From the IMG/VR virus record IMGVR_UViG_3300027747_002969, positions 20,334 through 84,333 of that record: a stretch of 64,000 bases of DNA, one strand, 5' to 3'. The DNA comes from a virus. A model generated the notes under the pieces. The model was not told the DNA's origin and did not search any database. It worked only from the letters and a program-made list of their open reading frames with translations. Shown one piece after another: positions 2,734-21,539 of this stretch (positions are counted from its first letter, which is position 1; every line of letters starts with the position of its first letter). A program made the position numbers and the translations under genes.

Positions 2734-3006
2734 ATGAGTATAGGTTCACTTTCCGCTGGTGACAAGGCACGACTACAGGGTCTGATCAACGAAGGCGTGC
2801 AGGCCATGATTGATATTGCATCTATGCGAGATGGCCTCAAGGAAACCATTGAAAACATCGCAGAAGAACTGGACATCAAAAAGACTGTGCTGAACAAGGC
2901 CATCACCATTGCCTTTAAAAACAACCAAAACAAGGACAAACTGACCGAAAGCCGTGAAGAGTTGGACGAGGTTGAACAGGTGTTGATGGCAGCAGGTCGA
3001 GCATAA
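2734..3006 (+). CDS. T4 DsbA-like double-stranded DNA-binding protein
   Basis: About 90 aa, helical, LKETIENIAEELDIKKTVLNKAITIAFK pattern; AAGGAG RBS. Confidence 0.6.
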   Translation: MSIGSLSAGDKARLQGLINEGVQAMIDIASMRDGLKETIENIAEELDIKKTVLNKAITIAFKNNQNKDKLTESREELDEVEQVLMAAGRA

Positions 3007-3008
3007 AA

Positions 3009-4010
3009 ATGAAAAAATGGATCTTCATCACCGGAGGATGCGGCTACATAGGCAGCCATGTAGCAGCTGAAATCAAAGACAAGACTGACTATTCGGTGCT
3101 GTTGATCGATCGACGTGCTAAAGAATTAGTACACACTACTAAATTCTGCGATATGGTAGCCGATGAGGATTTTGCCAGCAAGGTCAGCCAGGAAGCCATT
3201 CGCGAATATCGACCAGAAACTGTGATACATCTGGCTGCCAACAGCACGATTGGTTCCAGTATGACCAATCCTGCTGGCACCTGGGAAAACAACGTGACCA
3301 AAATGCAGCAGTTGCTGTCATGCTGTGTGCAGAATCAAATTCGCAATGTAATTTTTGCCAGCAGCAGTTCGGTTTATGCAGATCAACATGTGGCCATTGA
3401 TGAATCGCATGCATTGTCCCCCTACAGTCCATATGCTACTACAAAGATGGTTGGCGAAATGATGCTGAGAGATTGGTACGGGGCGCATGGTATACGCAGC
3501 CTAAGCCTGCGTTTTTTCAACGTAGCAGGAGCACATACCAAATACGATCTTGGAGAGTTGCAGGGCAGCAGCCATTTGATGGCCAAGATTATGGAAAGTG
3601 TAGTAGATGGCCGTGATTTCACTGTATGGGGCAGGGACTGGCCTACTCCGGACAAGACTGCCATACGTGACTATACGCATGTCTTAGACATTACCGATGC
3701 AGTCTTATTGGCAATAAAATGGCTGCCAAACAATCACGGCGCGCATGTGATGAATCTTGGCGGTGGCCAAGGTCGCAGTGTACAGCAAATGATCAACACT
3801 ACCGAACTGTTGTTGAGCAAACAACTGCCATATCGATACGGCAATCGTTTGGATGGAGATAGTGCCATGAGATTTTCCAACAATGCTTGTGCATTAAAAC
3901 TACTGGGTTGGCAACCCAGTCGTGGATTAAATGACATCATTTTGGACAGTTTCAAATGGTACAACAGTGACATGTATCGTTCATTAACGCAAGCAAAAAT
4001 TGTCTATTGA
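3009..4010 (+). CDS. galE: UDP-glucose 4-epimerase (GalE-like extended SDR)
   Basis: TGGCGYIGSH, HLAA, ASSSSVY, YATTK (YxxxK), RFFNVAGA, IRDYTHV. Confidence 0.85.
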   Translation: MKKWIFITGGCGYIGSHVAAEIKDKTDYSVLLIDRRAKELVHTTKFCDMVADEDFASKVSQEAIREYRPETVIHLAANSTIGSSMTNPAGTWENNVTKMQQLLSCCVQNQIRNVIFASSSSVYADQHVAIDESHALSPYSPYATTKMVGEMMLRDWYGAHGIRSLSLRFFNVAGAHTKYDLGELQGSSHLMAKIMESVVDGRDFTVWGRDWPTPDKTAIRDYTHVLDITDAVLLAIKWLPNNHGAHVMNLGGGQGRSVQQMINTTELLLSKQLPYRYGNRLDGDSAMRFSNNACALKLLGWQPSRGLNDIILDSFKWYNSDMYRSLTQAKIVY

Positions 4011-4054
4011 ATGTCTCTGATAGAGAGATTATAACTGAGTTAGGAGGTACAGAC

Positions 4055-5749
4055 ATGTATGTTGATGCATTCTATGAACGTGATAAAAATCAAATATTAG
4101 TAGTAGAGCGCAACCGCGCTGGCAAACGCATCTACAACCAATTTCCTACCAAATACTGTGTGTATTGGCCCAGCGCTCGTGGCAAGTTTAAGAATATCTA
4201 CGGTACTGCCTGTGAAAAGTATCAAACTACTAAACTGAAAGAATTTACACGAGAAATTAATATCATTCCCAAGTTGACTCAGCATGAATCGGATATCAAT
4301 CCAGTGTTCCGCTGCTTCTATGACAACTACAAGGGTGTACCGGGACCAGACCTGCATGTGGCTTTTTTTGACATTGAAACTGACTTTGATCCTTTACGTG
4401 GGTTTTCCAGCACAGATGATGCATTTTCGCCAATAACTGCCATCTCAATCTATCTCAAATGGTTGGAAAGAAACTTTACCATGGTGATCAAACCCAAAGA
4501 CATGGATCAAACCACTGCTGAAGAAATTGTAGCCAAATTTGCCGATACAGTTCTGTGTGAAAGCGAAAAAGAACTGCTAGAACTGTTTCTGGGCATCATA
4601 GATGATGCTGATGTGCTGAGTGGTTGGAATTCCGAAGGCTATGATATTCCCTATATACACAATCGCATAGTACAGGTCTTGGGCAAGGAAGAAACACGCA
4701 AGTTGTGTCTCTGGGGAAAATATCCCAAGCGGCGTGAATACGAAGCCTATGGACGTCAGACTGTGACGTATGATCTAGTTGGTAGGATACACCTTGATTA
4801 TCTACAACTGTATCGCAAAAATACCTATCATGAAATGCACAGTTATCGTTTGGACTTTGTGGGAGAATATGAAGTTGGTGATAAGAAAACACATTACGAA
4901 GGCAGTTTAGATAGTCTCTACAACAACGATTTTGAAAGATTCATAGAATATAATCGCCAAGACGTCATGTTGTTGGTAAAGATCGATGCTAAAAACAAGT
5001 TCATAGAACTCAGCAACAATCTAGCACATGAAAACTGTGTGCTGCTGCCAACCACTATGGGTGCAGTGGGGTTGATCGACCAGGCTATTGTTAACGAATC
5101 TTGGGATCTTGGATTTGTTGTACCAAATCGCAAGAATGATCGCGCGAAACACCGCAGTGACGACGACGATGAGGATGACGATTCGGTCGACATATCTGGT
5201 GTGGTTGGGGCATATGTGGCTGATCCAAAACAGGGCATGCATGATTGGATTGGCGGTGTTGACATCAACAGTCTCTATCCCAGTGCCATTCGTGCACTGA
5301 ATATGAGTCCGGAGACTATCGTTGGCCATATCCGCCCAGAAAGCACCGACAAGCTCATCACCAAACGCATGAAGTCTGAAAAAAAATCATTTGCTGATGC
5401 GTGGAACAGCATGTTTGGCACATTGGAATATAACCAAGTGATTAATCAAGATCTCACACCAATAACAGTGGATTTTGAAGACGGTAACAGTCAAACTGTG
5501 TCAGCCAGTGAACTGTATGATTTGGTTTTCAAAAGTGGTAAGAATCTCATACTCAGTGCCAATGGTACTATATTTACCGGTGACAAGCAGGGCATTATAC
5601 CCGGTCTGTTGAGTCGTTGGTACAGCGAGAGAAAAGAACTGCAGGCTGAGATGCGACGATATGGGGATCTCTGTGCCAACGGCATAGAATTGTCAGCTGA
5701 TCTAGCAGATGAGGTTAGACAGATCCTTGCTGCAAACCAGACAACCTAA
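4055..5749 (+). CDS. polB: DNA polymerase B (gp43-like), fragment 1: 3'-5' exonuclease, motif A and first fingers helix
   Basis: ExoI FFDIET, ExoII GWNSEGYDIPY, ExoIII YNRQD, GAYV, motif A DINSLYPS, GIIPGLLSRWYSERK; AGGAGG RBS before ATG 4055. Confidence 0.92.
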   Translation: MYVDAFYERDKNQILVVERNRAGKRIYNQFPTKYCVYWPSARGKFKNIYGTACEKYQTTKLKEFTREINIIPKLTQHESDINPVFRCFYDNYKGVPGPDLHVAFFDIETDFDPLRGFSSTDDAFSPITAISIYLKWLERNFTMVIKPKDMDQTTAEEIVAKFADTVLCESEKELLELFLGIIDDADVLSGWNSEGYDIPYIHNRIVQVLGKEETRKLCLWGKYPKRREYEAYGRQTVTYDLVGRIHLDYLQLYRKNTYHEMHSYRLDFVGEYEVGDKKTHYEGSLDSLYNNDFERFIEYNRQDVMLLVKIDAKNKFIELSNNLAHENCVLLPTTMGAVGLIDQAIVNESWDLGFVVPNRKNDRAKHRSDDDDEDDDSVDISGVVGAYVADPKQGMHDWIGGVDINSLYPSAIRALNMSPETIVGHIRPESTDKLITKRMKSEKKSFADAWNSMFGTLEYNQVINQDLTPITVDFEDGNSQTVSASELYDLVFKSGKNLILSANGTIFTGDKQGIIPGLLSRWYSERKELQAEMRRYGDLCANGIELSADLADEVRQILAANQTT

Positions 5750-5779
5750 GTTTGATCATTGCATCGTTTTGGTTGGCTG

Positions 5780-5809
5780 TTGACATATCATCAACAGGTT
5801 TGGTATATT
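5780..5809 (+). promoter_or_regulatory. Sigma70-like promoter between polymerase fragments 1 and 2
   Basis: TTGACA (5780-5785), 18 nt, TATATT (5804-5809). Confidence 0.5.
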
Positions 5810-5833
5810 ATGATGAACAATATGGAGCTCCAA

Positions 5834-6798
5834 ATGGAAACAATTGACAGCTTGGTAAAGAAACGGGATGCTCGGGGTATAGCAGCATTTATCGAATCCA
5901 ATGGATTGGCTCTAAACGAGTCCAATCGCATGACAGCCGTATCGAGTCAAGCCAAAACTCGCTGCAAGCGCCAACAAGACTTCTATGATCAGCGCCAGCT
6001 TATCAAGAAAATCTTGCTTAATTCGTAGATCTGCGACGCTGATTGGCAACAATCAGATGACAACTGCTCTAATTGCTGGAAACTCCCTGACAGGGACAAT
6101 CAGCAGCCAAGCGTTGGAAACAACGAAGGTTCAACGACTAGATCGAAAGATCGTAGATCCAAGTGGATCGAAATGGGCAGCATCCCACGTGGATGGTGAT
6201 ATAGTCTCCTCTGCATGGTAACATGCAGCAGTGCTGTTAAAGCACGGGGCAGCATTAACGACGCTGTCTGAAGATCAAGGTGTATGGAGCTATTGGTAAT
6301 CCCAGCTCAAGGTTCGCAGACAACCGAGTGGCACAGAGCACCACTTTGACTGGTCGTTGCATTGTCAAACACATGGCAGGAAAGATTAATGAAACGATTG
6401 CAGGCGATTACAATCACACAGGGGTATCAATAATTTACGGGGATACCGATTCGGTTGACGCCGAATCAATTATTAGAACCAATTTAGGTGATAAAACTGT
6501 TGAAGACTTGTTTCTGAGTGGTAGTCTTTTTTGGCAAGAGGGCAACAAGGAATATTCAAGAAACGATGCAGTCCAAGTTGTCAGCTATCTTCCTGAAGAA
6601 AACAAGACAACTCTGTCCAAATATAATTATGTCTATCGTCATAAGGTACGGAAAAAGAAATATAGGATTACCACGTCTAGTGGCAAATCAGTTATTGTTA
6701 CTGAAGACCATTCAGTTATGGTGTTGATTGATGGACAACTGGTAGAAAAAAAGCCAACTCAGTTGACAAAAAATGATAAGGTTATTACCTTGTCATAA
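5834..6798 (+). CDS. polB: DNA polymerase B fragment 2, join(5834..6026,6281..6798): fingers, motif B, start of motif C, fused to N-terminal split-intein half
   Basis: Removing 6027-6280 gives QLIKKILLNS-L-YGAIGNP (motif B); then TLTGR and YGDTD followed by intein block A; GGAG RBS before ATG 5834 (5810 is an alternative start). Confidence 0.88.
6027..6280 (+). mobile_element. Group I self-splicing intron, 254 nt, no internal endonuclease ORF
   Basis: 5' exon ends in U (6026) in P1 helix UCGU|A-GAUC-UGCGA with a U.G wobble; P AATTGCTGGAAA, Q AATCAGCAG, R GTTCAACGACTA, S GATATAGTC; terminal G 6280; splicing restores a TTG Leu codon and the frame. Confidence 0.92.
6451..6795 (+). mobile_element. 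Split intein N-terminal half (IntN, about 115 aa), inserted at YGDTD|S
   Basis: Starts SVDAESII right after YGDTD; block B VIVTEDHSVMV; ORF stops at 6798 without the C-terminal HN. Confidence 0.9.
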
Positions 6799-6858
6799 AC
6801 AATTGTTCAACTATGCTGCGCCTGGTGTGTTGGGTTTGGTTAACGGATTCAACACACT

Positions 6859-6960
6859 AAGATCAAGGTCGCCACAGAAAGATGCTTTTAAGTGAAATAG
6901 TTTGCTGGAGAGAATTTGAAAATTCTCAAACAAATCATAGAGGAAGGTTTTAAATGGTGA
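6859..6960 (+). pseudogene. Possible degenerate C-terminal remnant of a Vsr/DUF559-like homing endonuclease
   Basis: Broken frames read KIKVATERCF* / EIVCWREFENSQ / KQIIEEGFKW*, with the stop overlapping the IntC start (ATGGTGA); resemblance judged by eye. Confidence 0.4.
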
Positions 6961-7085
6961 ACCACCTAATAGAGACGATTGAATCAATTGAAGAATTGGG
7001 AGAATTTGAAGATGAGTATGTCTATGACATAGGTATTGATCCAACTCACCCCTACTTCTTTGCAAATGATGTTTTGGTTCACAAC
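6954..7085 (+). mobile_element. Split intein C-terminal half (IntC, 44 aa)
   Basis: Acidic IESIEELGEFEDEYVYDIGI (block F) and FFANDVLVHN (block G), followed by Ser +1 (TCC 7086). Confidence 0.92.
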
Positions 7086-7937
7086 TCCGCTTATTTCTCG
7101 GCCTATCCGGTGATGAAAGATTCACCAGATTTCCAAGACTTTGAATGGACCAAGGAAGCAGTGGTAGAACTCTATGACAAGATTGGAGACATAACCAATG
7201 CCAGTTTTCCTGATTTTATGCGTGCAGCTTTCAATTGTCAGCCCAGCAGTGGAGCCATTATACGTGCAGCGCGAGAACTCTGCGCACTGAAAGGTCTATT
7301 CATTACTAAAAAACGCTATGCTGTTTTGATCTATGACAAAGAAGGCAAGAGGAAAGATTCCAATGGCAAGCCAGGTGAGATCAAAGCCATGGGTCTTGAT
7401 CTCAAACGCAGCGATACTCCCAAGATCGTGCAGGATTTTCTCAGTGACATCTTGGTTGATGTATTAACTGGCAGTACAGAACGGGACATTCAACAGAAAA
7501 TTCTAGAATTCCGCAAGGAATTTCGCAGTTGGCCTGGTTGGCTCAAGGGTTCTCCCAAGCGTGCCAACAAGATTACACACTATCAAAACATCATCAACAG
7601 TCAGGGTCCGCGAGGTACCATTCCCGGACATGTGCTGGCCAGCATCAACTGGAATCGATTGAAAAAGATCTATGGCGATCATTATAGCCAGTCAATACAA
7701 GATGGTGCCAAAGTCATAGTGTGTAAATTGCGATCCAATCCCAGTGGCTTAACATCCGTAGCATATCCTGTTGATGAATTGACACTGCCGCAATGGTTCA
7801 AAGATCTACCATTTGATGAAGAAGCAATGGAGTCAGCATTGATTGACAAGAAGTGTCAAAACCTTCTGGGAGTGCTGTCATGGGACCTCGAGTCAAATCG
7901 CGAGAACAGCAGTTTCAGCGATCTATTCAGTTTTTAA
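6954..7937 (+). CDS. polB: IntC fused to DNA polymerase B fragment 3 (rest of palm and thumb)
   Basis: After HN: SAYF..., KKRYA, IKAMGLDLKRSDTP, PGHV; ends with clamp-binding-like FSDLFSF. Confidence 0.92.
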   Translation: MVNHLIETIESIEELGEFEDEYVYDIGIDPTHPYFFANDVLVHNSAYFSAYPVMKDSPDFQDFEWTKEAVVELYDKIGDITNASFPDFMRAAFNCQPSSGAIIRAARELCALKGLFITKKRYAVLIYDKEGKRKDSNGKPGEIKAMGLDLKRSDTPKIVQDFLSDILVDVLTGSTERDIQQKILEFRKEFRSWPGWLKGSPKRANKITHYQNIINSQGPRGTIPGHVLASINWNRLKKIYGDHYSQSIQDGAKVIVCKLRSNPSGLTSVAYPVDELTLPQWFKDLPFDEEAMESALIDKKCQNLLGVLSWDLESNRENSSFSDLFSF

Positions 7938-7955
7938 AACAAGGAACAGCAAATA

Positions 7956-8159
7956 ATGGCCACTAAACCCACTACGATATACTCTCCAACTGATCTCAAA
8001 ACACTTGTTGACGCACTCAATGGAGCGCCATCATACTTGTCAAAGCGATTCATACTGAAGTGGCTCTGCGGTTGGACAGACGAAATGATCGAAACCAACA
8101 TGCGTATGAAACAGGAAGAAGACTATCAACACAAGACTGGAGAAAAGACATGGCGTTAA
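7956..8159 (+). CDS. Small protein resembling the C-terminal segment of T4-like portal proteins
   Basis: YLSKRFILKWLCGWTDEMIETNMRMKQEE; AAGGA RBS; overlaps the next start. Confidence 0.5.
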   Translation: MATKPTTIYSPTDLKTLVDALNGAPSYLSKRFILKWLCGWTDEMIETNMRMKQEEDYQHKTGEKTWR

Positions 8160-8893
8160 AAGACTATATCAAAGACCTTACCACCTACGTGACTCCCACG
8201 GGGTTTTTTGACAAGATCAAGGTAGCGGCTACTACCAAAGAAATCACAGTTGAAGCCATGGAAAAGGAAAAGGAAGTGATTCTCAAGGGTCGCTTTACCA
8301 AACCTTTGAGCGACCTTACTGGCGAGTTTGGGCTCAGTAATCTTTCACTGCTGCAGACTATCACCGGCGATCAGCAATTTCCTCATGCCGAAAGCACACT
8401 TGCCATCACCTATGAGTCCAAAGCAGCAGAAAAGATCCCAACTGAACTGGCCTATCAAAACAAAAGCAAAAGCCATATCAACTATCGATTCATGGCCAAA
8501 CAACTGCTGCCAGACCAGCCCAAGTTTATGGAGCCCAAGTGGGATGTCACAGTAACACCCAGCAAGGCCAACATACAGCAGTTGACCTGGGCAGCCAATG
8601 GTCTTGGTACCTATGAGCAGTATTTCATTCCCAAGATTGTGGATGGAGACCTCATGTTTTTCATCGGTGAAGACAATGCAGCAACACAGCGCGGTGGGGT
8701 AGTATTTGCCAGCGAACGCAGTGAAACATTTGTCAGCGATCACAAATGGAAGATTGCGCAGATACTGTCGGTTTTGAAATTGGCAGACACCTGTGATTGC
8801 GAAATGTCTTTTTCTATCAAAGGTGCTATTCAAATCACCCTCAATACTGGTGTAGGAACCTATCGTTATATTTTCCCTGCAAAAGTGCGTTGA
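8150..8893 (+). CDS. Sliding clamp (gp45-like DNA polymerase processivity factor)
   Basis: About 247 aa, close downstream of the polymerase; GEFGLSNLSLL, NYRFM, PKWDVTVTP and C-terminal YRYIFPA patterns. Confidence 0.7.
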   Translation: MALKDYIKDLTTYVTPTGFFDKIKVAATTKEITVEAMEKEKEVILKGRFTKPLSDLTGEFGLSNLSLLQTITGDQQFPHAESTLAITYESKAAEKIPTELAYQNKSKSHINYRFMAKQLLPDQPKFMEPKWDVTVTPSKANIQQLTWAANGLGTYEQYFIPKIVDGDLMFFIGEDNAATQRGGVVFASERSETFVSDHKWKIAQILSVLKLADTCDCEMSFSIKGAIQITLNTGVGTYRYIFPAKVR

Positions 8894-9769: not shown

Positions 9770-9871
9770 ATGGCAATTGAACCAACCACAACGATCTATT
9801 CAACTAACAATGACAAAGTCATCTGCAAATATGCCGCTGCACTGAATGATATCTTGTTTGGAGGTCGGTGA
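9770..9871 (+). CDS. 33-aa small ORF (MAIEPTTTIYSTNNDKVICKYAAALNDILFGGR)
   Basis: GAGGTG RBS; TGATG overlap with the next gene. Confidence 0.45.
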   Translation: MAIEPTTTIYSTNNDKVICKYAAALNDILFGGR

Positions 9872-10248
9872 TGAATAAAAAGACATTTGTCTATTGTACC
9901 TTTCAAAAGGAAGGATACCATTTCTTTCCCGGAGCCGACACTGATCCTCAATATGCCACAGGTGATGTATACGATGTCAGTGCACTGGGATTTAGGCACA
10001 TGCACTACTTCAACTTCAAAGTCTGGGTTGAGGTGACTCATGCAAACCGTCAAATTGAGTTTATACAGCTGCGTAGATGGATTGAGCGTTTATATTCAAC
10101 TGGTGCTCTCGAACTTGACAATCAAAGTTGCGAAATGATGAGTGACGCATTGTATGAAAAAATCTCCGCTAGATATCCCGGAATGGAGATCAGGATAGAT
10201 ATCAGCGAAGAAGGTATCAACGGTTCTTACACTGAATATCAACCGTGA
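9871..10248 (+). CDS. QueD-like T-fold protein, candidate CDG decarboxylase (DpdL-like)
   Basis: EGYH, LGFRHMHYFNFKV, IEFIQL, SCEMMS, SEEGING; a canonical QueD is encoded separately at 18179. Confidence 0.6.
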   Translation: MNKKTFVYCTFQKEGYHFFPGADTDPQYATGDVYDVSALGFRHMHYFNFKVWVEVTHANRQIEFIQLRRWIERLYSTGALELDNQSCEMMSDALYEKISARYPGMEIRIDISEEGINGSYTEYQP

Positions 10249-10465: not shown

Positions 10466-11581
10466 ATGACAACAATCTACATCGTGCCAATTGAACCCGT
10501 AACCACGCGCTATACAAAACAATGGTATGACCATATTCCAATTCTGTTAGACCGTGCAGGTGCAGAACATGTGGTGATCGTAGACGGCGAAGCAGTGTCA
10601 GATACGCCAACTCCTGGGGCGTTTTTAGATTTTGCCGCAACAAATCAATGGAAAAGTAGCCAATTGATGATCATTGCACAGTTGTTCCGCGAGCAAAAGA
10701 TACAAGATGGCGACAAGTTCCTCTATACAGACGCATGGAACCCAACATGTATACAACTGCGCTACATGGCAGAATTGTTTGGCAAAAAGATTGAAATACA
10801 TGGTCTTTGGCATGCTGGTAGCTACGATTCGCAAGATTTTCTAGGGAGATTGATCGGTGACAAGCCCTGGATACGCAATGCCGAGACCAGCATGTTCTAC
10901 ACCTATGACACCAATTGGTTTGCTACGAGATTTCACAGTAATCTTTTTCTGCGTGAAATGTTTGATGTTGAGATTTTTTTCCGCAAGGATGAAACTGACG
11001 AATGGGTTCATCATGCCATAGGGGCTGAACGCCGTAGAATCAAGATCACAGGTTGGCCCATGGATTATCTCGTTGATGCACTGAAACCCTACAGCAATCT
11101 ACAAAAGAAGCAGCAGATCTGTTTCCCACATCGTATTGCACCAGAAAAGCAGTTGGAAATTTTCAAAGACCTGTCGTTGGTCATGCCCGAGTACAACTGG
11201 GTAGTTTGCCAGAATACACCATTGACCAAACATGAATACCATACCATACTTGGTGAGAGCAAGGTTGTATTTTCAGCCGGTCTACAAGAAACCCTAGGTA
11301 TTTCTGCATGCGCTGAGGCATCACTGTGTAATGCTATACCATATTGTCCAGACAGACTCAGCTACAGTGAGATATTCTCAAATCATAAAGAGTTTTTATA
11401 TCCATCAGAATGGACTGAAAACTGGGAAGGTTATCTTCGACACAGATCAAAGTTGGTAGATCAAATTAGATCTATCATGAATGGATATGATCAGATGTTG
11501 CCAATTATAAAAGATTATAATCAACATACAGTTTCTAAATACTTTAGTGCAGATCCGTTGGTCACTGCATTGATAGGGTAA
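10466..11581 (+). CDS. GT-B fold glycosyltransferase
   Basis: FPHRIAPEKQ, QETLGIS...EA...P..PDRLSYSE (retaining GT-B E-x7-E-like region). Confidence 0.75.
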   Translation: MTTIYIVPIEPVTTRYTKQWYDHIPILLDRAGAEHVVIVDGEAVSDTPTPGAFLDFAATNQWKSSQLMIIAQLFREQKIQDGDKFLYTDAWNPTCIQLRYMAELFGKKIEIHGLWHAGSYDSQDFLGRLIGDKPWIRNAETSMFYTYDTNWFATRFHSNLFLREMFDVEIFFRKDETDEWVHHAIGAERRRIKITGWPMDYLVDALKPYSNLQKKQQICFPHRIAPEKQLEIFKDLSLVMPEYNWVVCQNTPLTKHEYHTILGESKVVFSAGLQETLGISACAEASLCNAIPYCPDRLSYSEIFSNHKEFLYPSEWTENWEGYLRHRSKLVDQIRSIMNGYDQMLPIIKDYNQHTVSKYFSADPLVTALIG

Positions 11582-11893
11582 TAGGTGATAACCTCAAGCG
11601 AATAAGACAACTTTTGGATTATGACCAAAATCCTGCATGGAAAGCCGTGGGTAGATTTGATTTGCCAAAGGCATGTCTAGCGATTTGGTGATCAACCTGC
11701 CCTAGCAGTAGATTCGTCACAGCTTTTTAATTGTAGAAACCACAGTGCAGCAGCGGAACATTTGCAACGCAGTGGATACCATTTGCTCACCCAATATCGC
11801 AGCAACGTGGTGTTTGCGCCAAAGACTGTCTAATAGAAAATTGCAGAACCTGTTGTTCTGCAACTAAACTGTATGATAGGAGAACTCTCGCAC

Positions 11894-12517
11894 ATGTTAC
11901 CTGCTGTATTCAAAGACCTAGACCGCGGTCTGTTGTGGAAATTGGTCATAATCCAATCACTGCTGATCACCATCAGCAACTATTTGGTACACTATAAATT
12001 CGCCATACTGGGATGGCCCTTGGCCTGGAGCATATGGTGCACACCACTGTTCATGGTGATCACTGATCTGGTCACACGCCTAGTGGGCAAACCACTTGCA
12101 CGAGCTGTGCTGCTGGCCACTCTGGTGCCGGGCATGCTGGGCACTGCGGTTGGTGCTTGGCTCTATGGCAGCGGCCTAGTTGATGGCACTCGCCTCACGG
12201 TAGCCAGTGGCATCTGTTATCTGCTGCCCATGCTGTTGGATGTCTGGATCTTTGCCTGGCTGCGCCATCGTATATCTGCGTGGTATGTAGCACCTGCTGT
12301 CAGCGGTGTTGTGACCACCATATTCATGACATATCTGTTTTGGGGTGTGGCATTTGCAGGCGGCAGCGATCCCTATCTCAGCAGTCATTGGTATGTGTTG
12401 GCCACCAGTCAGCTGATCATCAAGAACCTGCTGAATCTCCTGCTGCTGCTGCCGCTGTATGGTGCACTGCTGACTTGGCTCACACGCAAATCAGGTGCTA
12501 GACATGCAGGAGTATAA
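11894..12517 (+). CDS. yhhQ: Queuosine-precursor (preQ0/preQ1) transporter, YhhQ/VUT family
   Basis: About six TM helices; ISNYLV, TDLVTRLVGKPLAR, LDVWIFAWLR, WYVAPAVS and LPLYGALL follow the E. coli YhhQ pattern. Confidence 0.85.
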   Translation: MLPAVFKDLDRGLLWKLVIIQSLLITISNYLVHYKFAILGWPLAWSIWCTPLFMVITDLVTRLVGKPLARAVLLATLVPGMLGTAVGAWLYGSGLVDGTRLTVASGICYLLPMLLDVWIFAWLRHRISAWYVAPAVSGVVTTIFMTYLFWGVAFAGGSDPYLSSHWYVLATSQLIIKNLLNLLLLLPLYGALLTWLTRKSGARHAGV

Positions 12518-13295
12518 TCGATTGTGGGATACCTACAGCAAAAACTGGGATCTGCTGAAAGCACCCATGCGGCCCACCACTGCTGTGATCCGTGTGCTGC
12601 AGCAGCAGATAGGCGAAGGTCATGTGCTGCAGTTGGGCTGCACTCCTGAGATACATGCGGCGTTTGATCACATCACTGCTGTGGACAGAGATCCCAACAT
12701 GATTGCCACTGTGTGGCCAGGCAACACTGCCACCAAACAGGTGATCAATCAAGACTGGATGCACATGATTTGGCCCCACAACACATTTACAGGCATAGTC
12801 AGTGACTGTGGTGTGGTCATGCTTGGTACCTTGCAACGACAACAAGAGTTTCTGTCTCGCTGCTGGGATTGGCTTGCACCTGGGGGTACCTATGCGCAAC
12901 GCTACTTTGAGCGCCCCATGGTCAACATCACCTTGGAAGAACTACTGGCTGACATCAGCGGACCAGCCAAGATCAACTTTCATGCTTTCAAATGGAAGAT
13001 GGGCATGTATCTGGCAGGTCAACACGGTGCGGCCACTGCCAGTGTGCAGATATTAGATCTGTGGCGTGAGATCAGCGGCGATCGAGAGGCAGTGTTGGAT
13101 CGCACAGGTTGGTCTGCTGAAGCGGTGCAGACAGTGGATTTTTATCAGACCAGTGGGCAGGTAGTGACATTTGCCAATCGTGAGGAATATGCCAGCACTA
13201 TACCTGCAGGTGCAGTTGATGTGGAATGGCTCTATACAACAGATTATGATTTTGCAGAACACTGTCCTATCATGCGCTGGAGAAAGCCGCTGTGA
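12504..13295 (+). CDS. Class I SAM-dependent methyltransferase
   Basis: VLQLGCTPE (motif I), AVDRD, QDW, LAPGG; overlaps the yhhQ stop. Confidence 0.7.
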   Translation: MQEYNRLWDTYSKNWDLLKAPMRPTTAVIRVLQQQIGEGHVLQLGCTPEIHAAFDHITAVDRDPNMIATVWPGNTATKQVINQDWMHMIWPHNTFTGIVSDCGVVMLGTLQRQQEFLSRCWDWLAPGGTYAQRYFERPMVNITLEELLADISGPAKINFHAFKWKMGMYLAGQHGAATASVQILDLWREISGDREAVLDRTGWSAEAVQTVDFYQTSGQVVTFANREEYASTIPAGAVDVEWLYTTDYDFAEHCPIMRWRKPL

Positions 13296-14632
13296 ACCTA
13301 GAAGGTGTGACATGGCCCAAGATGTATACTGGGCCTAACCTAGTGCTTATGGCGCTGCTGGCCGAGTTGGACCGCACAATGTGGTTAGATCCTGAAGTCA
13401 TAGCTGCTGAGCAGTTCAAACAACTGCGTTTGATAATTGCTCATCACACGGCATACAGCCCGCAGTTTGCTGCTAGAATGCTGGCAGCTGGATTGACAGC
13501 TGCTGACATCACTGACGCGGCCAGCCTTCGCCGCCTGCCGCCCTTGCGACGCCTAGACATACAGCGTGCAGGCGATGGTTTTTACAGTAAACACATACCG
13601 CAGAGCCATGGACAACCGGGTGAGACTCGCACCAGTGGTAGCACAGGTGAACCTGTGAAGATACGCAAGACACAGATTGATGCACTGTTTTGGACTGCAC
13701 ATGCTATAAGAGATCATCTCTGGGCCCGTCGCGATTTTCGCCACCGGTTGCTGAGCATACGTGCTGACATCTGGAAGTACGGCGAGTCGCCCAACTGGGG
13801 ACAGCCCATAGCAGACATCTGGCAGACTGGTCGCAGTATAGGCATGCCGGCTACCTATGATGTACGAGAACAGTTGCGGATCATCAAAGAATTCCAGCCT
13901 GGCATACTGCTGATCTATCCCAACAATCTCAGCATTATCTTGGACGAAATGGCAGCAGATGGCAGCGACTTTGGATTTATCAAGCATGTCAAGACCATCG
14001 GTGAGACTGTGCACCAGTGGCAGCGTGACAAGACTCGTGCTGTTCTTGGAGTAAAGATAGAAGACAACTACAGCAGCAATGAAATGGGCTGCATGGCCAT
14101 GCAGTGTCCAGACACCGACAACTACCATGTCATGACAGAAACTGTGATAGTAGAGATCATCAATGATCAGGATCAGCCCTGTGTACCAGGTGAAGTGGGA
14201 CGTTTGGTGGTCACTGACCTACACAACCATGCCAGCCCATTGATACGCTATGACATAGGCGACTGGGCAGAAGCGGGTGAACCCTGCAGATGTGGACGAG
14301 GGTTGCCAACTATCAAGCGATTTGTTGGCAGAGAACACAGCATACTTTCACGGCCCGACGGCACTCGCATCTGGCCCATATTCTATGGCGCCAAAATGAA
14401 TGACATTGCACCGGTGAGACAGTACCAATTCATACAGCACACACTGACCGGCATGGAATTTCGCTGCTTTACAGAACAGCCGCTGACTGCAGCGCAGCGT
14501 GAAGGACTCATAGCATTAGTACAAGAGGCTCTGGGGTGGCCCTATGATTTAGATCTCATAGAATATCGCCAGCCTCTGCCAACCACAGCTCGTGGAAAAT
14601 TTCAAGAATATATCAACCGAATGGCAACATGA
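13292..14632 (+). CDS. Phenylacetate-CoA ligase/CapK-like adenylate-forming enzyme (ANL superfamily)
   Basis: TSGSTGEP, NYSSNEMG, GRLVVTDL, RYDIGD, CRCGR, GR, GKF; GTGA overlap with the methyltransferase. Confidence 0.85.
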   Translation: MNLEGVTWPKMYTGPNLVLMALLAELDRTMWLDPEVIAAEQFKQLRLIIAHHTAYSPQFAARMLAAGLTAADITDAASLRRLPPLRRLDIQRAGDGFYSKHIPQSHGQPGETRTSGSTGEPVKIRKTQIDALFWTAHAIRDHLWARRDFRHRLLSIRADIWKYGESPNWGQPIADIWQTGRSIGMPATYDVREQLRIIKEFQPGILLIYPNNLSIILDEMAADGSDFGFIKHVKTIGETVHQWQRDKTRAVLGVKIEDNYSSNEMGCMAMQCPDTDNYHVMTETVIVEIINDQDQPCVPGEVGRLVVTDLHNHASPLIRYDIGDWAEAGEPCRCGRGLPTIKRFVGREHSILSRPDGTRIWPIFYGAKMNDIAPVRQYQFIQHTLTGMEFRCFTEQPLTAAQREGLIALVQEALGWPYDLDLIEYRQPLPTTARGKFQEYINRMAT

Positions 14633-14807
14633 AAGTGATTTCCTGCATAACAGTTTGGCCATCGCCCAGTTGCGTAGTTGGACCAAAATAACCTCTGTTA
14701 TGTGAAAATCTGACATCCTTGTTGTGATGCGTCTGCATCTAACGCGGACATAACTTGATCTTTCAATGATCCAGCATCATACTGATGCTAGATAGGAATT
14801 ATCAACT

Positions 14808-16442
14808 ATGAATCCATTTGAAAACCAGCGCGGTTTAAACAAACAAGCAGTAAACCTTGCAAAATCGCAAAAAGACTATGCAGTATTTCTACCGTCAATT
14901 TCGGCGATCTATGCCAAGATCGTCAGTATGCCGGAATACAAGATACGTGAAAGGCTGCCCGATGGACTCAATAATGATAGATTAGACTTAAATTTCCTCA
15001 ACAAAGACAATAGTTTATTCTACTATCCTGCTGCACTTTATAGTGCAGGCCATGCATATCTAGACGTTAATGAAAGCAATGTTTACGAAAGCATGGTGCA
15101 AAAGCGAGATCGTTCAAGAACGGTGATAATAGGTGACAGTGGCGGATTCCAGATTGCCACAGGCGTATTGAAATGGCCATGGACACCAAAGAAAAATCAA
15201 GATGATTTAGAATGGGCACGTGACAAGGACAAACTGCGCATGTCGATTTTAAGATGGTTAGAAGCCACTGCAGATTATTCGTCTGTGCTCGACGTGCCAA
15301 CTTACGGTCTTGTTAAATTTGGATTTGATCCTGTCACAGGAGAAAGTCTGCATCCCGGAATGAAGACCTTTCGCGACTGTCTCAATGTCAGCCTTGAAAA
15401 TTATGATTTCTTTATACGAAACAGGGTTGAAGGTGCTACCAAGTTTCTAAACGTGTTGCAGGGTCGCAACCAAGAAGAAGGCGATGTTTGGTGGGATGCT
15501 GTGAAAGACCTGCCGTTTGAAACCTGGGCTTTTTCTAACGTTCAGGCATCAAACTTTTCCATCAACCTGCGGCGTTTGATCATCATGCGTGATGGCAAGT
15601 ATTTAGATGGACGCGATTGGCTACACTATCTCGGCAATGGTAAGATCAAAGCCGGTTGTGCATTGACCACGCTGCAGCGTGCCATTAGACAGCATATCAA
15701 TTCCAACATTACACTGAGTTTTGATGCAGCATCGCCGTTTGTGATGGTGGCTAAAGGACAGATGTATCATGGGTATGAACTCAGCCACAACAGCATGCGA
15801 TTCAAAGGTGGCAGCATAGTCGATGACAAACTTTTAAAAAACAGTCAACTGCTGTTGAACGACTGGATTTCTGCTAATGATCACAAGGGTTTTATAATTC
15901 CCAGTGCCATTGGTTCTCGCTGCACTGTTGGAGATATTTGTGTGCGAGGCTACGAGGATCTTGCCTATAAGAAGGTAGCATGGACCAAAAAGGAATTGCA
16001 AACTGATGCATATCTCAACAGTCAAGAAGGTCGTGCCGGAGACAAGTTCAAATGGAGTAATGATTACAAAGAGTATCTATCACATAGTCGGGATCACGGC
16101 GGGCTGTTTGATTTCAGCAGCAGCAAATTTGAACTAGATCATGAGAAATATCAAGTGAAATGGCCCAGCAGCATGGATGGTTTTTCCTATATCATTGCTA
16201 TGAACCACAATGTTGAGTTGCATATACGTGCAATTCAAGAAGCCTGTGCAGCACAGGATCTACCTCTGGCAGCAGCAACAGCACGAGTCACTCCAGATCT
16301 GCTGGAATTTAAAGATCTCTGCGGCGAAATATTGACCAGCCAACGACCTATGGATATTATCAACAAGCATGAGAAACTGCTGCGCAACATTACTGGCATG
16401 GATGCGGATAACCAAGTCAACATGGAAGTTGGAGACTTTTGA
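14808..16442 (+). CDS. dpdA: DpdA/TGT-like guanine transglycosylase (7-deazaguanine insertion into DNA)
   Basis: GDSGGFQ, LDVP, NVLQG, HYLG, SFDAASP TGT-fold motifs; clustered with folE/queD/queE. Confidence 0.75.
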   Translation: MNPFENQRGLNKQAVNLAKSQKDYAVFLPSISAIYAKIVSMPEYKIRERLPDGLNNDRLDLNFLNKDNSLFYYPAALYSAGHAYLDVNESNVYESMVQKRDRSRTVIIGDSGGFQIATGVLKWPWTPKKNQDDLEWARDKDKLRMSILRWLEATADYSSVLDVPTYGLVKFGFDPVTGESLHPGMKTFRDCLNVSLENYDFFIRNRVEGATKFLNVLQGRNQEEGDVWWDAVKDLPFETWAFSNVQASNFSINLRRLIIMRDGKYLDGRDWLHYLGNGKIKAGCALTTLQRAIRQHINSNITLSFDAASPFVMVAKGQMYHGYELSHNSMRFKGGSIVDDKLLKNSQLLLNDWISANDHKGFIIPSAIGSRCTVGDICVRGYEDLAYKKVAWTKKELQTDAYLNSQEGRAGDKFKWSNDYKEYLSHSRDHGGLFDFSSSKFELDHEKYQVKWPSSMDGFSYIIAMNHNVELHIRAIQEACAAQDLPLAAATARVTPDLLEFKDLCGEILTSQRPMDIINKHEKLLRNITGMDADNQVNMEVGDF

Positions 16443-16969
16443 TGAAACGTGACTATAAAGATGGCATCAAGAATGATGTGGTGTTTTTTACCGGAACAGA
16501 AGTGGAGCACACGCCTGCATGGGGTCTCAAAACACTGTTTGTAGTTGGTGTTCAACCCATTGAACGTGTTGCTGCACTGTTTGATCAGCACCGGTGTGAA
16601 CACATCTATCTTGGTGCCAATCAAAGTTTTGACACAGAAGGTTGGCTAGGTAACATCACTAACAGTGATGCCTGGGATAATATGATCAACAGCGTGTTGA
16701 CAATTGGTTGTTTGACCACGTTGGATTTTGATCTACGGTACGTGGACTGGGTCTGCGAAGGTGGGTATGCTGACAATGACCTCTTTATTCCGCAGATATC
16801 AGTCAAAATACCTTATCTAAACCAACTGGGTTATAATGCCACGTTGAAAATAGATGATCGTGGTTTTCGTGCAACCAACCCCGGCGTGTGGTGCCATAGC
16901 CTTCATGATCTCACTTCTCGCAGGGAGTTTACAGCTTGGAACCAATACAGTAAGGATCAACCAATATGA
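16442..16969 (+). CDS. Hypothetical protein coupled to dpdA
   Basis: Overlapping start/stop; GTEVEHTPA, HIYLGANQSF, TNPGVWCH. Confidence 0.7.
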   Translation: MKRDYKDGIKNDVVFFTGTEVEHTPAWGLKTLFVVGVQPIERVAALFDQHRCEHIYLGANQSFDTEGWLGNITNSDAWDNMINSVLTIGCLTTLDFDLRYVDWVCEGGYADNDLFIPQISVKIPYLNQLGYNATLKIDDRGFRATNPGVWCHSLHDLTSRREFTAWNQYSKDQPI

Positions 16970-17455: not shown

Positions 17456-18127
17456 ATGACTGCTACCAGCATTAAAATACGCAATCGAATTCAAACCAAT
17501 GGGGGTAAGTTTTTCTGCAACGACAATATCTCTGAATACATGGAACCCGGAGAATTTGACCTGTTGATGACAGAAGTCGAGTCTAAGATGCAGGGTGTGT
17601 TGGAAAGCCTGGTAATTGACACTGAGAACGATCACAACACACGAGAAACTGCACACAGAGTAGCCAAGATGTTTTGTACGGAGGTGTTTTCTGGCAGATA
17701 TCTTCCTCAACCCAAGATCACAGCATTTCCCAACGCCACAGCATATGATGAAGTCTATGTGACTGGACCAATTTCTGTAAGATCGACATGTGCTCACCAC
17801 CTACAGAGCATCAAGGGCCAGTGTTATATTGGTGTGTTCCCAGGCAAGAACGTTATTGGTCTTAGCAAGTTTAATCGCATGGTAGATTGGATTGCCAGCC
17901 GTCCACAGATTCAGGAAGAAATGACCATACAGATTGCCGATCTTGTGGAACGTGAAACTGAAGCCAAAGGTGTTGCTGTGCTGCTGCAGGCAGAGCACGG
18001 ATGCATGACCATGCGAGGAGTTAAAGAGCATGATTCTGACATGACCACCAGTGTGATGCGCGGAGTGTTTCGAGATACTCCGCACATCAAAAAGGAGTTT
18101 TTTGACATACTTGCTAGGATGAAATAG
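17456..18127 (+). CDS. folE: GTP cyclohydrolase I
   Basis: TAHRVAKM, RSTCAHH, GLSKFNR, RPQIQE, HGCMTMRGV. Confidence 0.95.
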   Translation: MTATSIKIRNRIQTNGGKFFCNDNISEYMEPGEFDLLMTEVESKMQGVLESLVIDTENDHNTRETAHRVAKMFCTEVFSGRYLPQPKITAFPNATAYDEVYVTGPISVRSTCAHHLQSIKGQCYIGVFPGKNVIGLSKFNRMVDWIASRPQIQEEMTIQIADLVERETEAKGVAVLLQAEHGCMTMRGVKEHDSDMTTSVMRGVFRDTPHIKKEFFDILARMK

Positions 18128-18178: not shown

Positions 18179-18700
18179 ATGGTTAATCAACCAATCAGTT
18201 ATAAATTTGTGAGCACCAAAGAATACATAGATGAATTTCCATGTGCCTATCGACAGTATTTGGCAGATGACAAACCGGGGAATATTCCTGGTTGTAATAA
18301 GATACATGGTTACAGTTTCAGTATAAAATTTTATTTTGGTACCAATTCACTAGATGCACGAAATTGGGTAGCTGATTATGGGGCACTGCGACCTCTCAAA
18401 GATTTTCTGAAAGATCTGTTTGATCATACCTTGTTGGTCAGTGAAACAGACCCTCATTTGGATTGGTATCAAGAAGCCATGCGCAGAGGAATCGCTAAAC
18501 TTACCATTCTCCCCAAATTGGGATGTGAAGGACTGGCAGATATGCTTTACAAATATGTCAACGCTGTGTTCATACCCGAGCAATGGGGAAGTAACGAATC
18601 TGAAAGGATTTGGTGTTACAAAGTGTCTGTTCGAGAAACTCAATCAAACCTAGCATTTCGTGTTGGTCATAGAGAATGGGACGACGATTTATTTTCTTGA
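18179..18700 (+). CDS. queD: 6-carboxy-5,6,7,8-tetrahydropterin synthase
   Basis: CNKIHGYS, WVADYG, FDHTLL, GCEGLA, VRET. Confidence 0.88.
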   Translation: MVNQPISYKFVSTKEYIDEFPCAYRQYLADDKPGNIPGCNKIHGYSFSIKFYFGTNSLDARNWVADYGALRPLKDFLKDLFDHTLLVSETDPHLDWYQEAMRRGIAKLTILPKLGCEGLADMLYKYVNAVFIPEQWGSNESERIWCYKVSVRETQSNLAFRVGHREWDDDLFS

Positions 18701-19944: not shown

Positions 19945-20826
19945 ATGTTTGGACATAATTCTATAGTTGGGCAGTCTTATTTTAAAGACGCTGGAGATAA
20001 CCTATTCGTAACAAGTATATTTGGAGTGACTCTGCAAGGCGAAGGTCCGTACCGAGGCGAGCCAGCAGTTTTTGTTAGACTGGCCAAATGTCAATTGGCC
20101 TGCAGTTTCTGTGATACCTTTTTTGATGACGGCGATTGGATGACAGTAGATCAAATTGATCAACGCATACAAACTGTGATTGAACAGTATTTTAATGGAT
20201 CAATTCCACTATGGGCCAGTGAACTACCCAGTTCAGAGTTTCAGGCTGCTAAACCAAGAGATATGGTGTTGGTAGTCACAGGCGGCGAACCCATGCTGCA
20301 GAAAAACATCGGTCCATTTCTCAAGCATATGAGCAAGAAGTTTGTCAAGACTCAGATCGAAAGCAACGGATTGCTGGTTCAAGACATTCCGGAATCCACA
20401 ACGCTGGTGGTAAGTCCAAAGTGCAATGAAAAGAACGGACAACCAACACAGTATCTTACACCAAATCCCAAGATGCTTGAACGTGCAAATTGTTTGAAGT
20501 TTGTAATGAATGCTGATCTCAATTCACCTTATGGGTCTGTTCCAATCTGGGCGCATGAGTGGCGCGACAAAACAGGTAACCCTGTGTTTGTCAGTCCAAT
20601 GAATATCTACAATGAAGAACCGCAGAAAAGCAAGCGTCTGCGCGCTGAAAAGAATCAGATCTCACTTGAAGAACGCAGTACTGTAGATGAAGTGATTTCT
20701 TGGTGGACACCCGGACTGTTAAACATGGCAGAAAACCAACGCAATCACGAGTATGCTGCTAGATACGCTGTCAGCAATGGGTTTGTATTCAATATGCAAC
20801 TGCATTTATTTGGTAATCTAGCCTAA
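19945..20826 (+). CDS. queE: 7-carboxy-7-deazaguanine synthase (radical SAM)
   Basis: TLQGEG, FVRLAKCQLACSFCDT (CxxxCxxC), VTGGEP, IESNG, VSPK, QLH. Confidence 0.93.
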   Translation: MFGHNSIVGQSYFKDAGDNLFVTSIFGVTLQGEGPYRGEPAVFVRLAKCQLACSFCDTFFDDGDWMTVDQIDQRIQTVIEQYFNGSIPLWASELPSSEFQAAKPRDMVLVVTGGEPMLQKNIGPFLKHMSKKFVKTQIESNGLLVQDIPESTTLVVSPKCNEKNGQPTQYLTPNPKMLERANCLKFVMNADLNSPYGSVPIWAHEWRDKTGNPVFVSPMNIYNEEPQKSKRLRAEKNQISLEERSTVDEVISWWTPGLLNMAENQRNHEYAARYAVSNGFVFNMQLHLFGNLA

Positions 20827-21539
20827 TGACATACTCGCTGTATCTTATATCAAACAAACCTCAATATCACAATGTCATACAATCAGGACTTGGCAGCCAA
20901 CATCTGGAATATTTTGATGGTAGCAATGTGGCAAATTTCAGCCAATTGGTCAACACCTGTGTTGAATATGCCAACACAGAAACAGTAATTCTGATGAGTG
21001 ACAAGGTGCGTCCAACACAAGAGCATGTGGATAAAACACTGAGCCTGCTGGAACAAGGCTATGCGTTTGTTGGTCTACAACTTTTTAGATTTTTTGCGTT
21101 TAAAAAACAGTTGTTCAGACAAATTGGCTGTATGGACGAAAGATATGTTGGTACTGGTCATGAGGACTATGACCTATATGTGCGTTTGATCGAACACAAT
21201 CTACCATTTTGGATAGAAGAATCTGTACCCTGGGATCATAGACCTTCTTCTTGGGCTGACAGTCAGGGAGTTTATCGGGGTTATACACATTGGTGTACCA
21301 AATGGCTACACCACTGGGTTGAAGGTCAACCATTGCCTGTATGTCTCGAACGGACTATGGCTGAGGAATCATATGGCTATGATTTTGGCCCAGAGCAGCC
21401 GGTAAGTTTTTTATCGGGACGAGACTGTTTCTATACTACCAACTGGCCGCATGTTGGGGCTTTTCTAGCTATGGATATAGTATCTGGCACTAACCTACGC
21501 TATAATAGGATCCAACCCAGTCTGCAGATTGGAAAATAA
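20826..21539 (+). CDS. GT-A (GT2/GT7-C-terminal-like) glycosyltransferase
   Basis: IGCMDERYVGTGHEDYDLYVRL; TAATG overlap with queE. Confidence 0.6.
   Translation: MTYSLYLISNKPQYHNVIQSGLGSQHLEYFDGSNVANFSQLVNTCVEYANTETVILMSDKVRPTQEHVDKTLSLLEQGYAFVGLQLFRFFAFKKQLFRQIGCMDERYVGTGHEDYDLYVRLIEHNLPFWIEESVPWDHRPSSWADSQGVYRGYTHWCTKWLHHWVEGQPLPVCLERTMAEESYGYDFGPEQPVSFLSGRDCFYTTNWPHVGAFLAMDIVSGTNLRYNRIQPSLQIGK

Follow-up and report, generated by a model that had tools for sequence, protein, structure and literature searches.

A YhhQ-family transporter, methyltransferase and PaaK-like ligase cassette acquired beside a DpdA-like gene in a large phage, with a possible role in deazapurine salvage

The window analysed here, a 64,000-nucleotide (nt) stretch comprising bases 20334-84333 of the 84,333-bp IMG/VR viral contig IMGVR_UViG_3300027747_002969, carries a cassette of three overlapping genes just upstream of a gene for a DpdA-like protein. 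The trio encodes a YhhQ/QPTR-family transporter, a class I methyltransferase and a PaaK-like adenylate-forming ligase. CheckV rates the source contig as only about 20% complete, and thus it is a fragment of a very large freshwater phage. Our tentative view, to which we give slightly less than an even chance, is that the trio serves as an accessory module for bringing in a deazapurine-type base and tailoring it. The trio is an operon of its own that large phages hand on to one another, with four genes in the donor, and the window phage took it up recently just upstream of its DpdA-type gene. In this proposal the permease would bring a 7-deazaguanine-type base from the surroundings into the infected cell, and the two coupled cytoplasmic enzymes would tailor it. 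The PaaK-like enzyme would adenylate a carboxylate and join it to an acceptor, the carboxylate being either the 7-carboxyl of 7-carboxy-7-deazaguanine (CDG) or an acid joined to the aminomethyl group of preQ1, and the methyltransferase would add one methyl group. In the window phage, the neighbouring DpdA could then draw on the salvaged or tailored base. The module would be an add-on to an already complete route of FolE, QueD, QueE, DpdL-like protein and DpdA, and neither a core step of that route nor a substitute for QueC. The parts of the cassette are as follows.

11838 to 11893, plus strand: 5' leader of the cassette, with a hairpin at 11841-11863 and the Shine-Dalgarno sequence AGGAGA at 11878-11883
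11894 to 12517, plus strand (open reading frame opening at ATG 11873): YhhQ/QPTR-family transporter, from Pfam and NCBIfam matches
12504 to 13295, plus strand (open reading frame from 12495): class I S-adenosylmethionine (SAM)-dependent methyltransferase, from a Methyltransf_11 match and the fold of an AlphaFold2 (AF2) model
13292 to 14632, plus strand: PaaK-like adenylate-forming (ANL) ligase, from a profile search of the PDB

An earlier note, made from the letters of the window alone, had described three overlapping genes that are preceded by a hairpin and look richer in GC and CTG than their flanks, and these observations hold. The three plus-strand open reading frames (ORFs) are present at 11873/11894-12517, 12495/12504-13295 and 13292-14632. 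The yhhQ stop codon TAA (12515-12517) lies inside the methyltransferase gene, whose start is either ATG 12504, for an overlap of 14 nt, or GTG 12495, for an overlap of 23 nt; the Atlas record of the methyltransferase begins at residue 4, which corresponds to ATG 12504. The methyltransferase stop TGA (13293-13295) overlaps the ligase start at GTG 13292 as GTGA, and GGAGAA lies 6-8 nt upstream. Translational coupling of the trio is plausible with this layout. The note's choice of ATG 11894 as the yhhQ start also stands, because the leader TAAAC..GATAGGAGAAC..CACATG is common to the window and to three other viral contigs with the cassette (L002, L105 and L106), whose upstream regions align from about 11838 to the ATG; AGGAGA lies 10 nt upstream of this start. 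The hairpin has arms TTGCAGAAC/GTTCTGCAA, with a 9-bp stem and a 5-nt loop, CTGTT. A scan marks it only as a terminator-like site on the minus strand, and its arms are not kept in the leaders of L002, L105 and L106. A promoter scan gave no signal (6 sites vs 5.0 +/- 2.4 expected).

The compositional contrast is borne out by a GC and codon-usage scan with the 80 ORFs of at least 100 amino acids (aa) in the 84-kb contig as baseline. The GC content of the transporter, methyltransferase and ligase genes is 0.530, 0.516 and 0.515, against 0.441 +/- 0.035 in those 80 ORFs, which makes them the most GC-rich genes of the contig, and they rank 1, 2 and 5 of 80 in GC content at third codon positions. 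CTG supplies 0.60, 0.45 and 0.34 of their leucine codons, in the same order, against a mean of 0.25. In 1-kb steps, GC is 0.52-0.54 at 12-14 kb and about 0.43 in the flanks. The note's view of an acquired module is supported by this foreign composition, by the absence of the trio in all six related phages and by a remnant of a donor gene at its right edge. Two features frame the insertion.

10466 to 11581, plus strand: 371-aa ORF, the left marker of the insertion site, conserved in relatives, where it directly precedes dpdA
14629 to 14691, plus strand: decayed stub of 20 codons, left from the donor operon's fourth gene, from DNA alignment with L105 and L106

The related viral contigs (L207-L212; DpdA 61-84% identical) share the gene order DpdL-like ORF, 371-aa ORF and dpdA, followed by downstream genes where the contig extends: folE in 4/6, queD in 2/6 and queE in 4/6. 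The 371-aa ORF, which lies inside the deazaguanine cluster and has no family match, is 35-56% identical in these relatives and, in four of them, separated from dpdA by 49-129 nt, as measured on tblastn match ends. L207 and L212 carry a different ORF, of 267 aa, between the same two genes (9217-10020 in L212), and therefore the junction tolerates insertions. The N-terminus of this 267-aa ORF looks GIY-YIG-like by eye; a PDB sequence search gave no match. On the right side, the stub, which follows the ligase stop directly, aligns with the beginning of a gene at 11325-11990 of L105 and with its L106 homologue. This fourth gene of the donor operon encodes a phrog_1574 family protein (E 1e-53). Trio GC is close to that of its surroundings in L105 and L106 (0.52-0.55 vs 0.51-0.53), foreign in the window (0.518 vs 0.436) and less so in L002 (0.459 vs 0.417). 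Judged by sequence comparison, then, the trio is a recent insertion. The composition contrast and the stub put the transferred segment at roughly 11838-14700 and its source in a GC-richer large phage.

The three products can be placed at the superfamily level. The transporter (207 aa from ATG 11894) is a membrane protein of the YhhQ/QPTR family (COG1738, Vut_1), with scores above the family cut-offs of PF02592 (48.2 bits vs 27.2) and TIGR00697 (69.5 vs 50.95) and below that of the E. coli-type equivalog NF008406 (117.5 bits vs 252). It matches phrog_4899. Other phage homologues, to which it is only 25-31% identical, carry the annotation preQ0 transporter or VUT family protein. All of the upstream genes that were tested in other copies of the trio are Vut_1 members as well. 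Characterised members of the QPTR/YhhQ family transport preQ0, preQ1 or queuine, as described in sections of PMC11130926 and PMC5372724, and a compound of this kind would be the expected cargo here.

The methyltransferase scores just above the cut-off of Methyltransf_11 (23.8 bits vs 21.2). Its AF2 model is confident (pLDDT 96.3), and all listed Foldseek matches have the class I methyltransferase fold (E 4e-10 to 3e-8, TMq 0.43-0.58). A PDB sequence search with it returned nothing useful. The canonical glycine-rich motif I (GxGxG) is absent: the window protein reads LQLGCTPE and the family consensus LLLGVTPE, in an alignment of 53 of the 94 full-length matches picked for spread. SAM binding is thus predicted from the fold. 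The protein also carries a conserved C-terminal extension of about 130 aa, and a search for the methyltransferase within longer fused proteins gave no match, which is weak evidence by the search tool's own grading.

The ligase has 446 aa. A profile search of the PDB finds PaaK (E 4e-28 to 1e-25) and the PaaK-like structures 6siw and AjiA1 (6wuq), while the single-model Pfam AMP-binding match is below its cut-off (22.9 vs 29.9). Partial NCBIfam matches fall far short of their cut-offs (DVU1553 family, 99 vs 300; FlxY, 92 vs 520), and the protein also fails both models of PaaK itself (TIGR02155, 48.4 vs 646.3; NF041878, 49.6 vs 700). Because all NCBIfam equivalogs, PaaK included, score so far below cut-off, we assign the ligase on sequence grounds to a distinct PaaK-like subfamily of the ANL superfamily. 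In an alignment of the window protein with 14 of its 120 listed homologues (15 sequences), T114-S115-G116, G119-E120-P121, Y260-S261-S262, E264 and G435-K436 are invariant; we take these to form the adenylation core, as the Ser/Thr/Gly-rich loop, the YxxxE motif and the C-terminal Gly-Lys. R140, H142, R157 and several Trp residues are invariant too, and this set of polar and aromatic residues would be compatible with a polar heteroaromatic acid as substrate. A FastTree phylogeny (25 of 183 matches removed for covering fewer than 380 residues or containing stops; 8 metagenomic proteins added) puts all phage groups and the closest bacterial group in one 45-row clade with support of 97. The trio arrangement requires at least three changes on this tree, which is compatible with single or multiple recruitment of YhhQ.

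When the cassette was compared with 50,697 phage records by megablast, there was no match, and tblastn with the ligase found only four unannotated gut-phage records at 25-28% identity, so that no isolate genome among them has the cassette. A gene-neighbourhood search for the trio, which the note had proposed, shows it to be a conserved unit: it recurs in at least four other phage lineages with completely different flanks. Identities to the window for YhhQ, methyltransferase and ligase are 74/44/84% in L002, 73/76/85% in L105 and L106, 35-39/36-37/42-43% in L084, L085 and L132, and 39/41/38% in L159.

In L105 the trio keeps company that fits deazaguanine chemistry: a QueC-like gene, a second Vut_1 gene and a nitroreductase gene lie upstream and a QueD gene downstream, and the neighbouring genes match jumbo-phage proteins. 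This contig also encodes, at 1512-1661, a tRNA-Met followed by a tRNA with a CTA anticodon (amber-reading, 'Pyl' by ARAGORN), which hints at TAG suppression or recoding in the L105 phage. In L084 and L085 a run of overlapping genes encodes an MBD4-like HhH-GPD DNA glycosylase, a second methyltransferase, YhhQ, the methyltransferase and the ligase. The L084 glycosylase (146 aa) matches MBD4 in the PDB (E 4.6e-13 over 111 residues) and keeps the GIGKYG.DSY stretch, which suggests a partner based on a glycosylase rather than on a tRNA-guanine transglycosylase (TGT) for this type of cassette. The run (7030-11332 in L084; also in L085 and L132) opens with a 121-aa ORF, and its second methyltransferase is a class I protein of 290 aa. 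Directly after the cassette in the same three contigs, all classed as viral, comes a region (11389-17050 in L084) with CsgF, CsgG and curlin-repeat genes; these curli genes are followed by genes for a FecR-like protein and a CHASE2 adenylate/guanylate cyclase, and further on for a GT4 glycosyltransferase and an alpha/beta hydrolase.

The window, L105 and L084/L085 thus make three contexts, with no shared flanks, in which the trio is associated with base exchange or deazaguanine synthesis. Because the trio stays intact across wide divergence, because of the family to which its transporter belongs and because of these three contexts, we infer that the two enzymes act on the transporter's cargo and that this cargo is related to nucleobase chemistry. 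A bolder version of the idea is that the cassette makes a 7-deazaguanine derivative new to DNA, such as CDG converted to an amide or ester, or an N-acyl, N-methyl preQ1, which a base-exchange enzyme would install; the candidate installers would be the TGT-fold DpdA in the window phage and the MBD4-like glycosylase in L084-type phages. We regard this version as unlikely.

L002, a 158-kb viral contig, offers a different setting, in which the trio sits inside a tRNA array with six tRNA genes in the 8.6 kb upstream, and the last part of the ligase gene is overlapped by that of a Pth2-type peptidyl-tRNA hydrolase. The only Rfam elements found near cassettes are in this contig, namely tRNAs, a GOLLD RNA (1956-2409, 217 bits, with an internal tRNA-Arg) and a skipping-rope RNA just after the cassette (11797-11913); the tRNAs lie at 536-8200. 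Such a setting invites the explanation that the cassette is directed at tRNA, importing queuosine precursors so as to raise queuosine at position 34 (Q34) of host or phage tRNAs while the two enzymes process the salvaged compound. Several trio-bearing contigs show no DpdA, which agrees with a tRNA role. Nonetheless, none of the six L002 tRNAs near the trio has a GUN anticodon, and accessory genes often accumulate in the tRNA regions of large phages. Salvage of Q precursors for tRNA is the native role of YhhQ in sections of PMC11130926 and PMC5372724, and yet an ANL ligase or a methyltransferase is needed in no known step of Q salvage, the salvage enzymes named in those sections being QueK, Qng1 and QueL. 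We consider a tRNA-directed cassette very unlikely.

Another group of phages dispenses with YhhQ altogether. Twelve viral contigs (L191-L202) carry the methyltransferase-ligase pair without the transporter, and in 11 of the 12 a TctC-type solute-binding protein gene follows the pair. In the single annotated contig of this group (L199, also L086; 6414-12745), a gene for a porin-like outer-membrane protein comes after TctC, the pair itself comes after a tail-fibre gene of the Mtd type (Mtd_N), and Laminin_G_3 proteins and head-fibre genes lie beside it. L159 has the YhhQ form of the trio after a tail-fibre gene homologous to that of this group. These phages are related, and yet the partner of the pair is YhhQ in L159 and TctC plus a porin-like protein in the L086 group; it therefore seems that the substrate of the pair has to be imported.

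Beyond phages, more than 1,700 proteins are related to the ligase, some 20 of them metagenomic at 52-93% identity and the rest bacterial proteins of the 'phenylacetate-CoA ligase family' at about 45%. We surveyed 80 bacterial genome loci, taking genes within 8 kb, and it is here that much of the evidence weighing against an import-and-tailoring module for deazapurines is found. The methyltransferase gene is directly upstream of the ligase gene in 55 of the 80 loci, and none of the 80 has yhhQ, dpdA, folE, queD or queE. The neighbours are instead variable (NUDIX, alcohol dehydrogenase, hydrolase, prephenate dehydratase, a Crp-type regulator, an outer-membrane beta-barrel), and the beta-barrel gene precedes the pair in eight loci, the closest homologues among them. 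The ligase family (E <= 1e-60) occurs in 18 of 251 Alphaproteobacteria, with up to six copies. Vut_1 shows no enrichment with it, being present in 10 of these 18 genomes and in 135 of the other 233 (from cross-read lists); TGT is present in 10/10 ligase-bearing genomes tested, which is uninformative because TGT is nearly universal. An alphaproteobacterial locus (L218; G199:C63, 3954-13019) has 4-5 tandem ligase paralogues at 31-35% identity and no methyltransferase, an arrangement that suggests varied substrates. From gene content and order, the pair is a bacterial unit in its own right that shows no tie to queuosine genes. The earlier note had named two things that would speak against its interpretation, a ligase inactive on deazapurines and a pair normally found in unrelated contexts; the bacterial neighbourhoods bear out the second of these.

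Further points against the proposal come from the phages themselves. The 158-, 116- and 91-kb trio contigs have no Pfam match to TGT, QueC or PTPS, although they are fragments 27-32% complete and the Pfam TGT model misses the window DpdA too; the window DpdA, sought in the 158-kb contig only, has no match there. No riboswitch was found by an Rfam search near the cassette and the bacterial pairs, and the fold search with the methyltransferase returned generic class I methyltransferases only, with no specific relative. All six related phages manage without the trio, and its adjacency to dpdA may reflect a permissive site. TctC-family proteins bind carboxylates, and preQ0 and preQ1 have no carboxylate, so a substrate shared by the TctC and YhhQ forms is not obvious unless it is CDG. 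Given the bacterial distribution, the paralogy, the TctC partner, the permissive site and the trio-less relatives, the link to DNA modification would not be obligatory and could be absent.

These same facts can be assembled into a moron-type cassette unrelated to DNA or deazapurines, which would take up and activate some other small carboxylate (aromatic, heteroaromatic or vitamin-like), the ligase making a CoA thioester or amide, the methyltransferase modifying it, and the place beside dpdA following from a tolerant junction. The spread of the pair through unrelated bacterial contexts, the many ligase-family paralogues, the TctC genes beside tail-fibre, Laminin_G_3 and head-fibre genes, the beta-barrel genes upstream of the pair, the insertion hot spot with its trio-less relatives, and the lack of co-occurrence with Vut_1 in Alphaproteobacteria would all follow. 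What it leaves unexplained is that the characterised members of the partner's transporter family, in sections of PMC11130926 and PMC5372724, carry only 7-deazaguanines; that the trio stays joined at 35-43% identity in different flanks; and that three contexts with deazaguanine or DNA-glycosylase genes are hard to obtain by chance in genomes of several hundred kb. On balance this explanation, the main rival, seems to us rather unlikely, and we continue to favour, tentatively, a module for import and tailoring of a deazapurine-type base.

The gene next to the cassette and the cluster around it bear on whether that module would have a route to join. The cluster comprises the following.

9868 to 10248, plus strand: DpdL-like small protein of 126 aa, from the motif LGFRHMHYF, homologues and a match to phrog_17812
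14808 to 16442, plus strand: DpdA-like protein of 544 aa with the TGT fold, from an AF2 fold match
17456-18127, plus strand: FolE, from a match to Pfam GTP_cyclohydroI (6.5e-49)
18179-18700, plus strand: QueD, from a match to Pfam PTPS (3.8e-12)
19945-20826, plus strand: QueE-like radical SAM protein, from weak Radical_SAM/Fer4_12 matches

The cassette lies directly upstream of dpdA, as the note had it, with a spacer of 175 nt. The DpdA-like ORF has no Pfam, PHROG or PDB match by sequence and no PDB match by profile; its AF2 model (pLDDT 90.8, from a 24-sequence alignment of the window protein with 23 of 120 listed homologues) finds tRNA-guanine transglycosylases at every listed position of the top 50 PDB matches, with a best E of 1.6e-6 and target-normalised TM-scores of 0.41-0.53. 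Its DSGGFQ motif (D110-Q115), presumably the catalytic-Asp motif of TGT, is invariant except for F114, which is absent from both conservation lists. Homologues adjoin QueE in Pseudomonas phage PA5oct, and QueF, a Vut_1 gene, QueC, a Gat-like gene and FolE in Vibrio phage 2.275.O, so that genes of this type cluster with preQ0/CDG synthesis genes in the window, in both of these phages and in the relatives L208-L212. From its predicted fold and this company we accept the ORF as 'DpdA-like', without assignment to a subfamily (DpdA1-4). A 176-aa ORF with no family match (16439-16969) overlaps the dpdA stop and is kept after dpdA in three of the six relatives (L207, L208 and L212; 63-65% identity); it may be a partner of this type of DpdA.

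Homologues of the DpdL-like ORF are encoded by Acidovorax phage ACP17 (44%) and PA5oct (50%), and further ones by Phosso, Aeromonas Ahp1 and other large phages. Its LGFRHMHYF is close to the DpdL signature LxxxHRHxF; in the parts of Cui 2023 (PMC10516641) that deal with it, DpdL is a proposed CDG decarboxylase of phages that have DpdA, FolE, QueD and QueE and lack QueC. Searches of the 84-kb contig for QueC (PF06508) and QueF found neither, and the DpdL-like ORF together with the missing QueC would predict a modification of the 7-deazaguanine (dDG) type. The QueD homologue reads CNKIHGY where the signature in part of the same paper is CxxxHGH, and its second zinc-binding His is apparently replaced by Tyr. 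An ORF at 20826-21539 in the cluster has weak matches to glycosyltransferase family 2 and is conserved in relatives. The wider surroundings encode a split family-B DNA polymerase with intein pieces, an epimerase, a metallophosphoesterase and a 5'-3' exonuclease.

The absence of QueC was the basis of one branch of the earlier note's interpretation, in which the ligase would adenylate the CDG made by FolE, QueD and QueE and pass it on as 7-amido-7-deazaguanine (ADG) or further. As a heteroaromatic carboxylate, CDG belongs to a class of acids that ANL enzymes adenylate by established enzymology, and QueC itself works through adenylated CDG and ADG. ADG is named as an intermediate in part of PMC5372724. 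A bypass of this kind would be at odds with much else: the six relatives, in which QueC was not sought, have the deazaguanine cluster and no trio, which is thus dispensable for the pathway; the DpdL-like gene supplies the route published for phages with DpdA, FolE, QueD and QueE and without QueC (PMC10516641), which explains the absence; and a QueC-like gene adjoins the trio in the donor-like L105. The bypass would leave no role for the transporter and the methyltransferase, and QueC may lie elsewhere in a genome of which the contig is about a fifth. Of the note's interpretation, then, an acquired and conserved unit that keeps company with deazaguanine or DNA glycosylase genes in other phages is supported; replacement of QueC is not, and we give it very little credence, less even than a tRNA role.

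The note had also remarked that a PaaK-like enzyme falls outside the known phage deazaguanine pathways, and the literature we searched agrees: it contains none, Cui 2023 (PMC10516641) never uses the word 'ligase' in its main text, and no paper was found that joins deazaguanine with phenylacetate-CoA ligase, or phenylacetate-CoA ligase with queuosine and phage.

The occurrence of the trio beside DpdA, QueC/QueD genes and a DNA glycosylase in unrelated phages makes it a testable candidate for another salvage or tailoring branch. With 7-deazaguanine modifications, phage DNA is shielded from restriction enzymes and, in vitro, from Cas9, and eight derivatives are known so far along with their enzymes. 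If a derivative new to DNA is the product, an adenylate-forming ligase and a class I methyltransferase would join the DNA hypermodification toolkit, and a function would be at hand for a large orphan family of bacterial enzyme pairs. Even if there is no connection to DNA, the analysis defines a widespread orphan pair of methyltransferase and PaaK-like ligase, present in many Alphaproteobacteria and other bacteria, which phages supply with interchangeable uptake proteins (YhhQ, or TctC and a porin), and this points to a small imported substrate.

Among known systems, one comparison is with PaaK and the PaaK-like enzymes of solved structure (4r1l, 2y27, 6siw and AjiA1, 6wuq), which are the best PDB relatives of the ligase by sequence (E 4e-28 to 1e-20). 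They align with it chiefly along the N-terminal domain's second half, and the adenylation residues are conserved. PaaK differs in that the window ligase falls in a clade of its own and is coupled to a methyltransferase. The transporter resembles QPTR/YhhQ proteins to the extent of passing the Vut_1 and TIGR00697 thresholds, and departs from them in failing that of NF008406 and in its apparent translational coupling to two enzymes, an arrangement that we did not find described. QueC, which converts CDG to preQ0 via ADG, shares with the presumed action of the ligase the ATP-driven activation of a carboxylate; it is a PP-loop ATPase, however, not an ANL enzyme, and has no sequence relation to the ligase.

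The phage 7-deazaguanine clusters described in parts of Hutinet 2019 (PMC6884629) and Cui 2023 (PMC10516641) are a further system close to the locus as a whole. These combine DpdA, FolE, QueD and QueE, with or without QueC, QueF, DpdL, DpdM, DpdN and YhhQ, and a YhhQ homologue in some phages is noted in Hutinet 2019 (PMC6884629). The window matches them in its DpdA-like, FolE, QueD, QueE-like and DpdL-like genes. It differs in having a ligase, whereas the pathways described there are without one, and in that the trio occurs also away from visible deazaguanine genes. For DpdM, the preQ1 methyltransferase already published, a unique fold is described in Cui 2023 (PMC10516641), and the window methyltransferase, with its ordinary class I fold, is set apart from it by description only.

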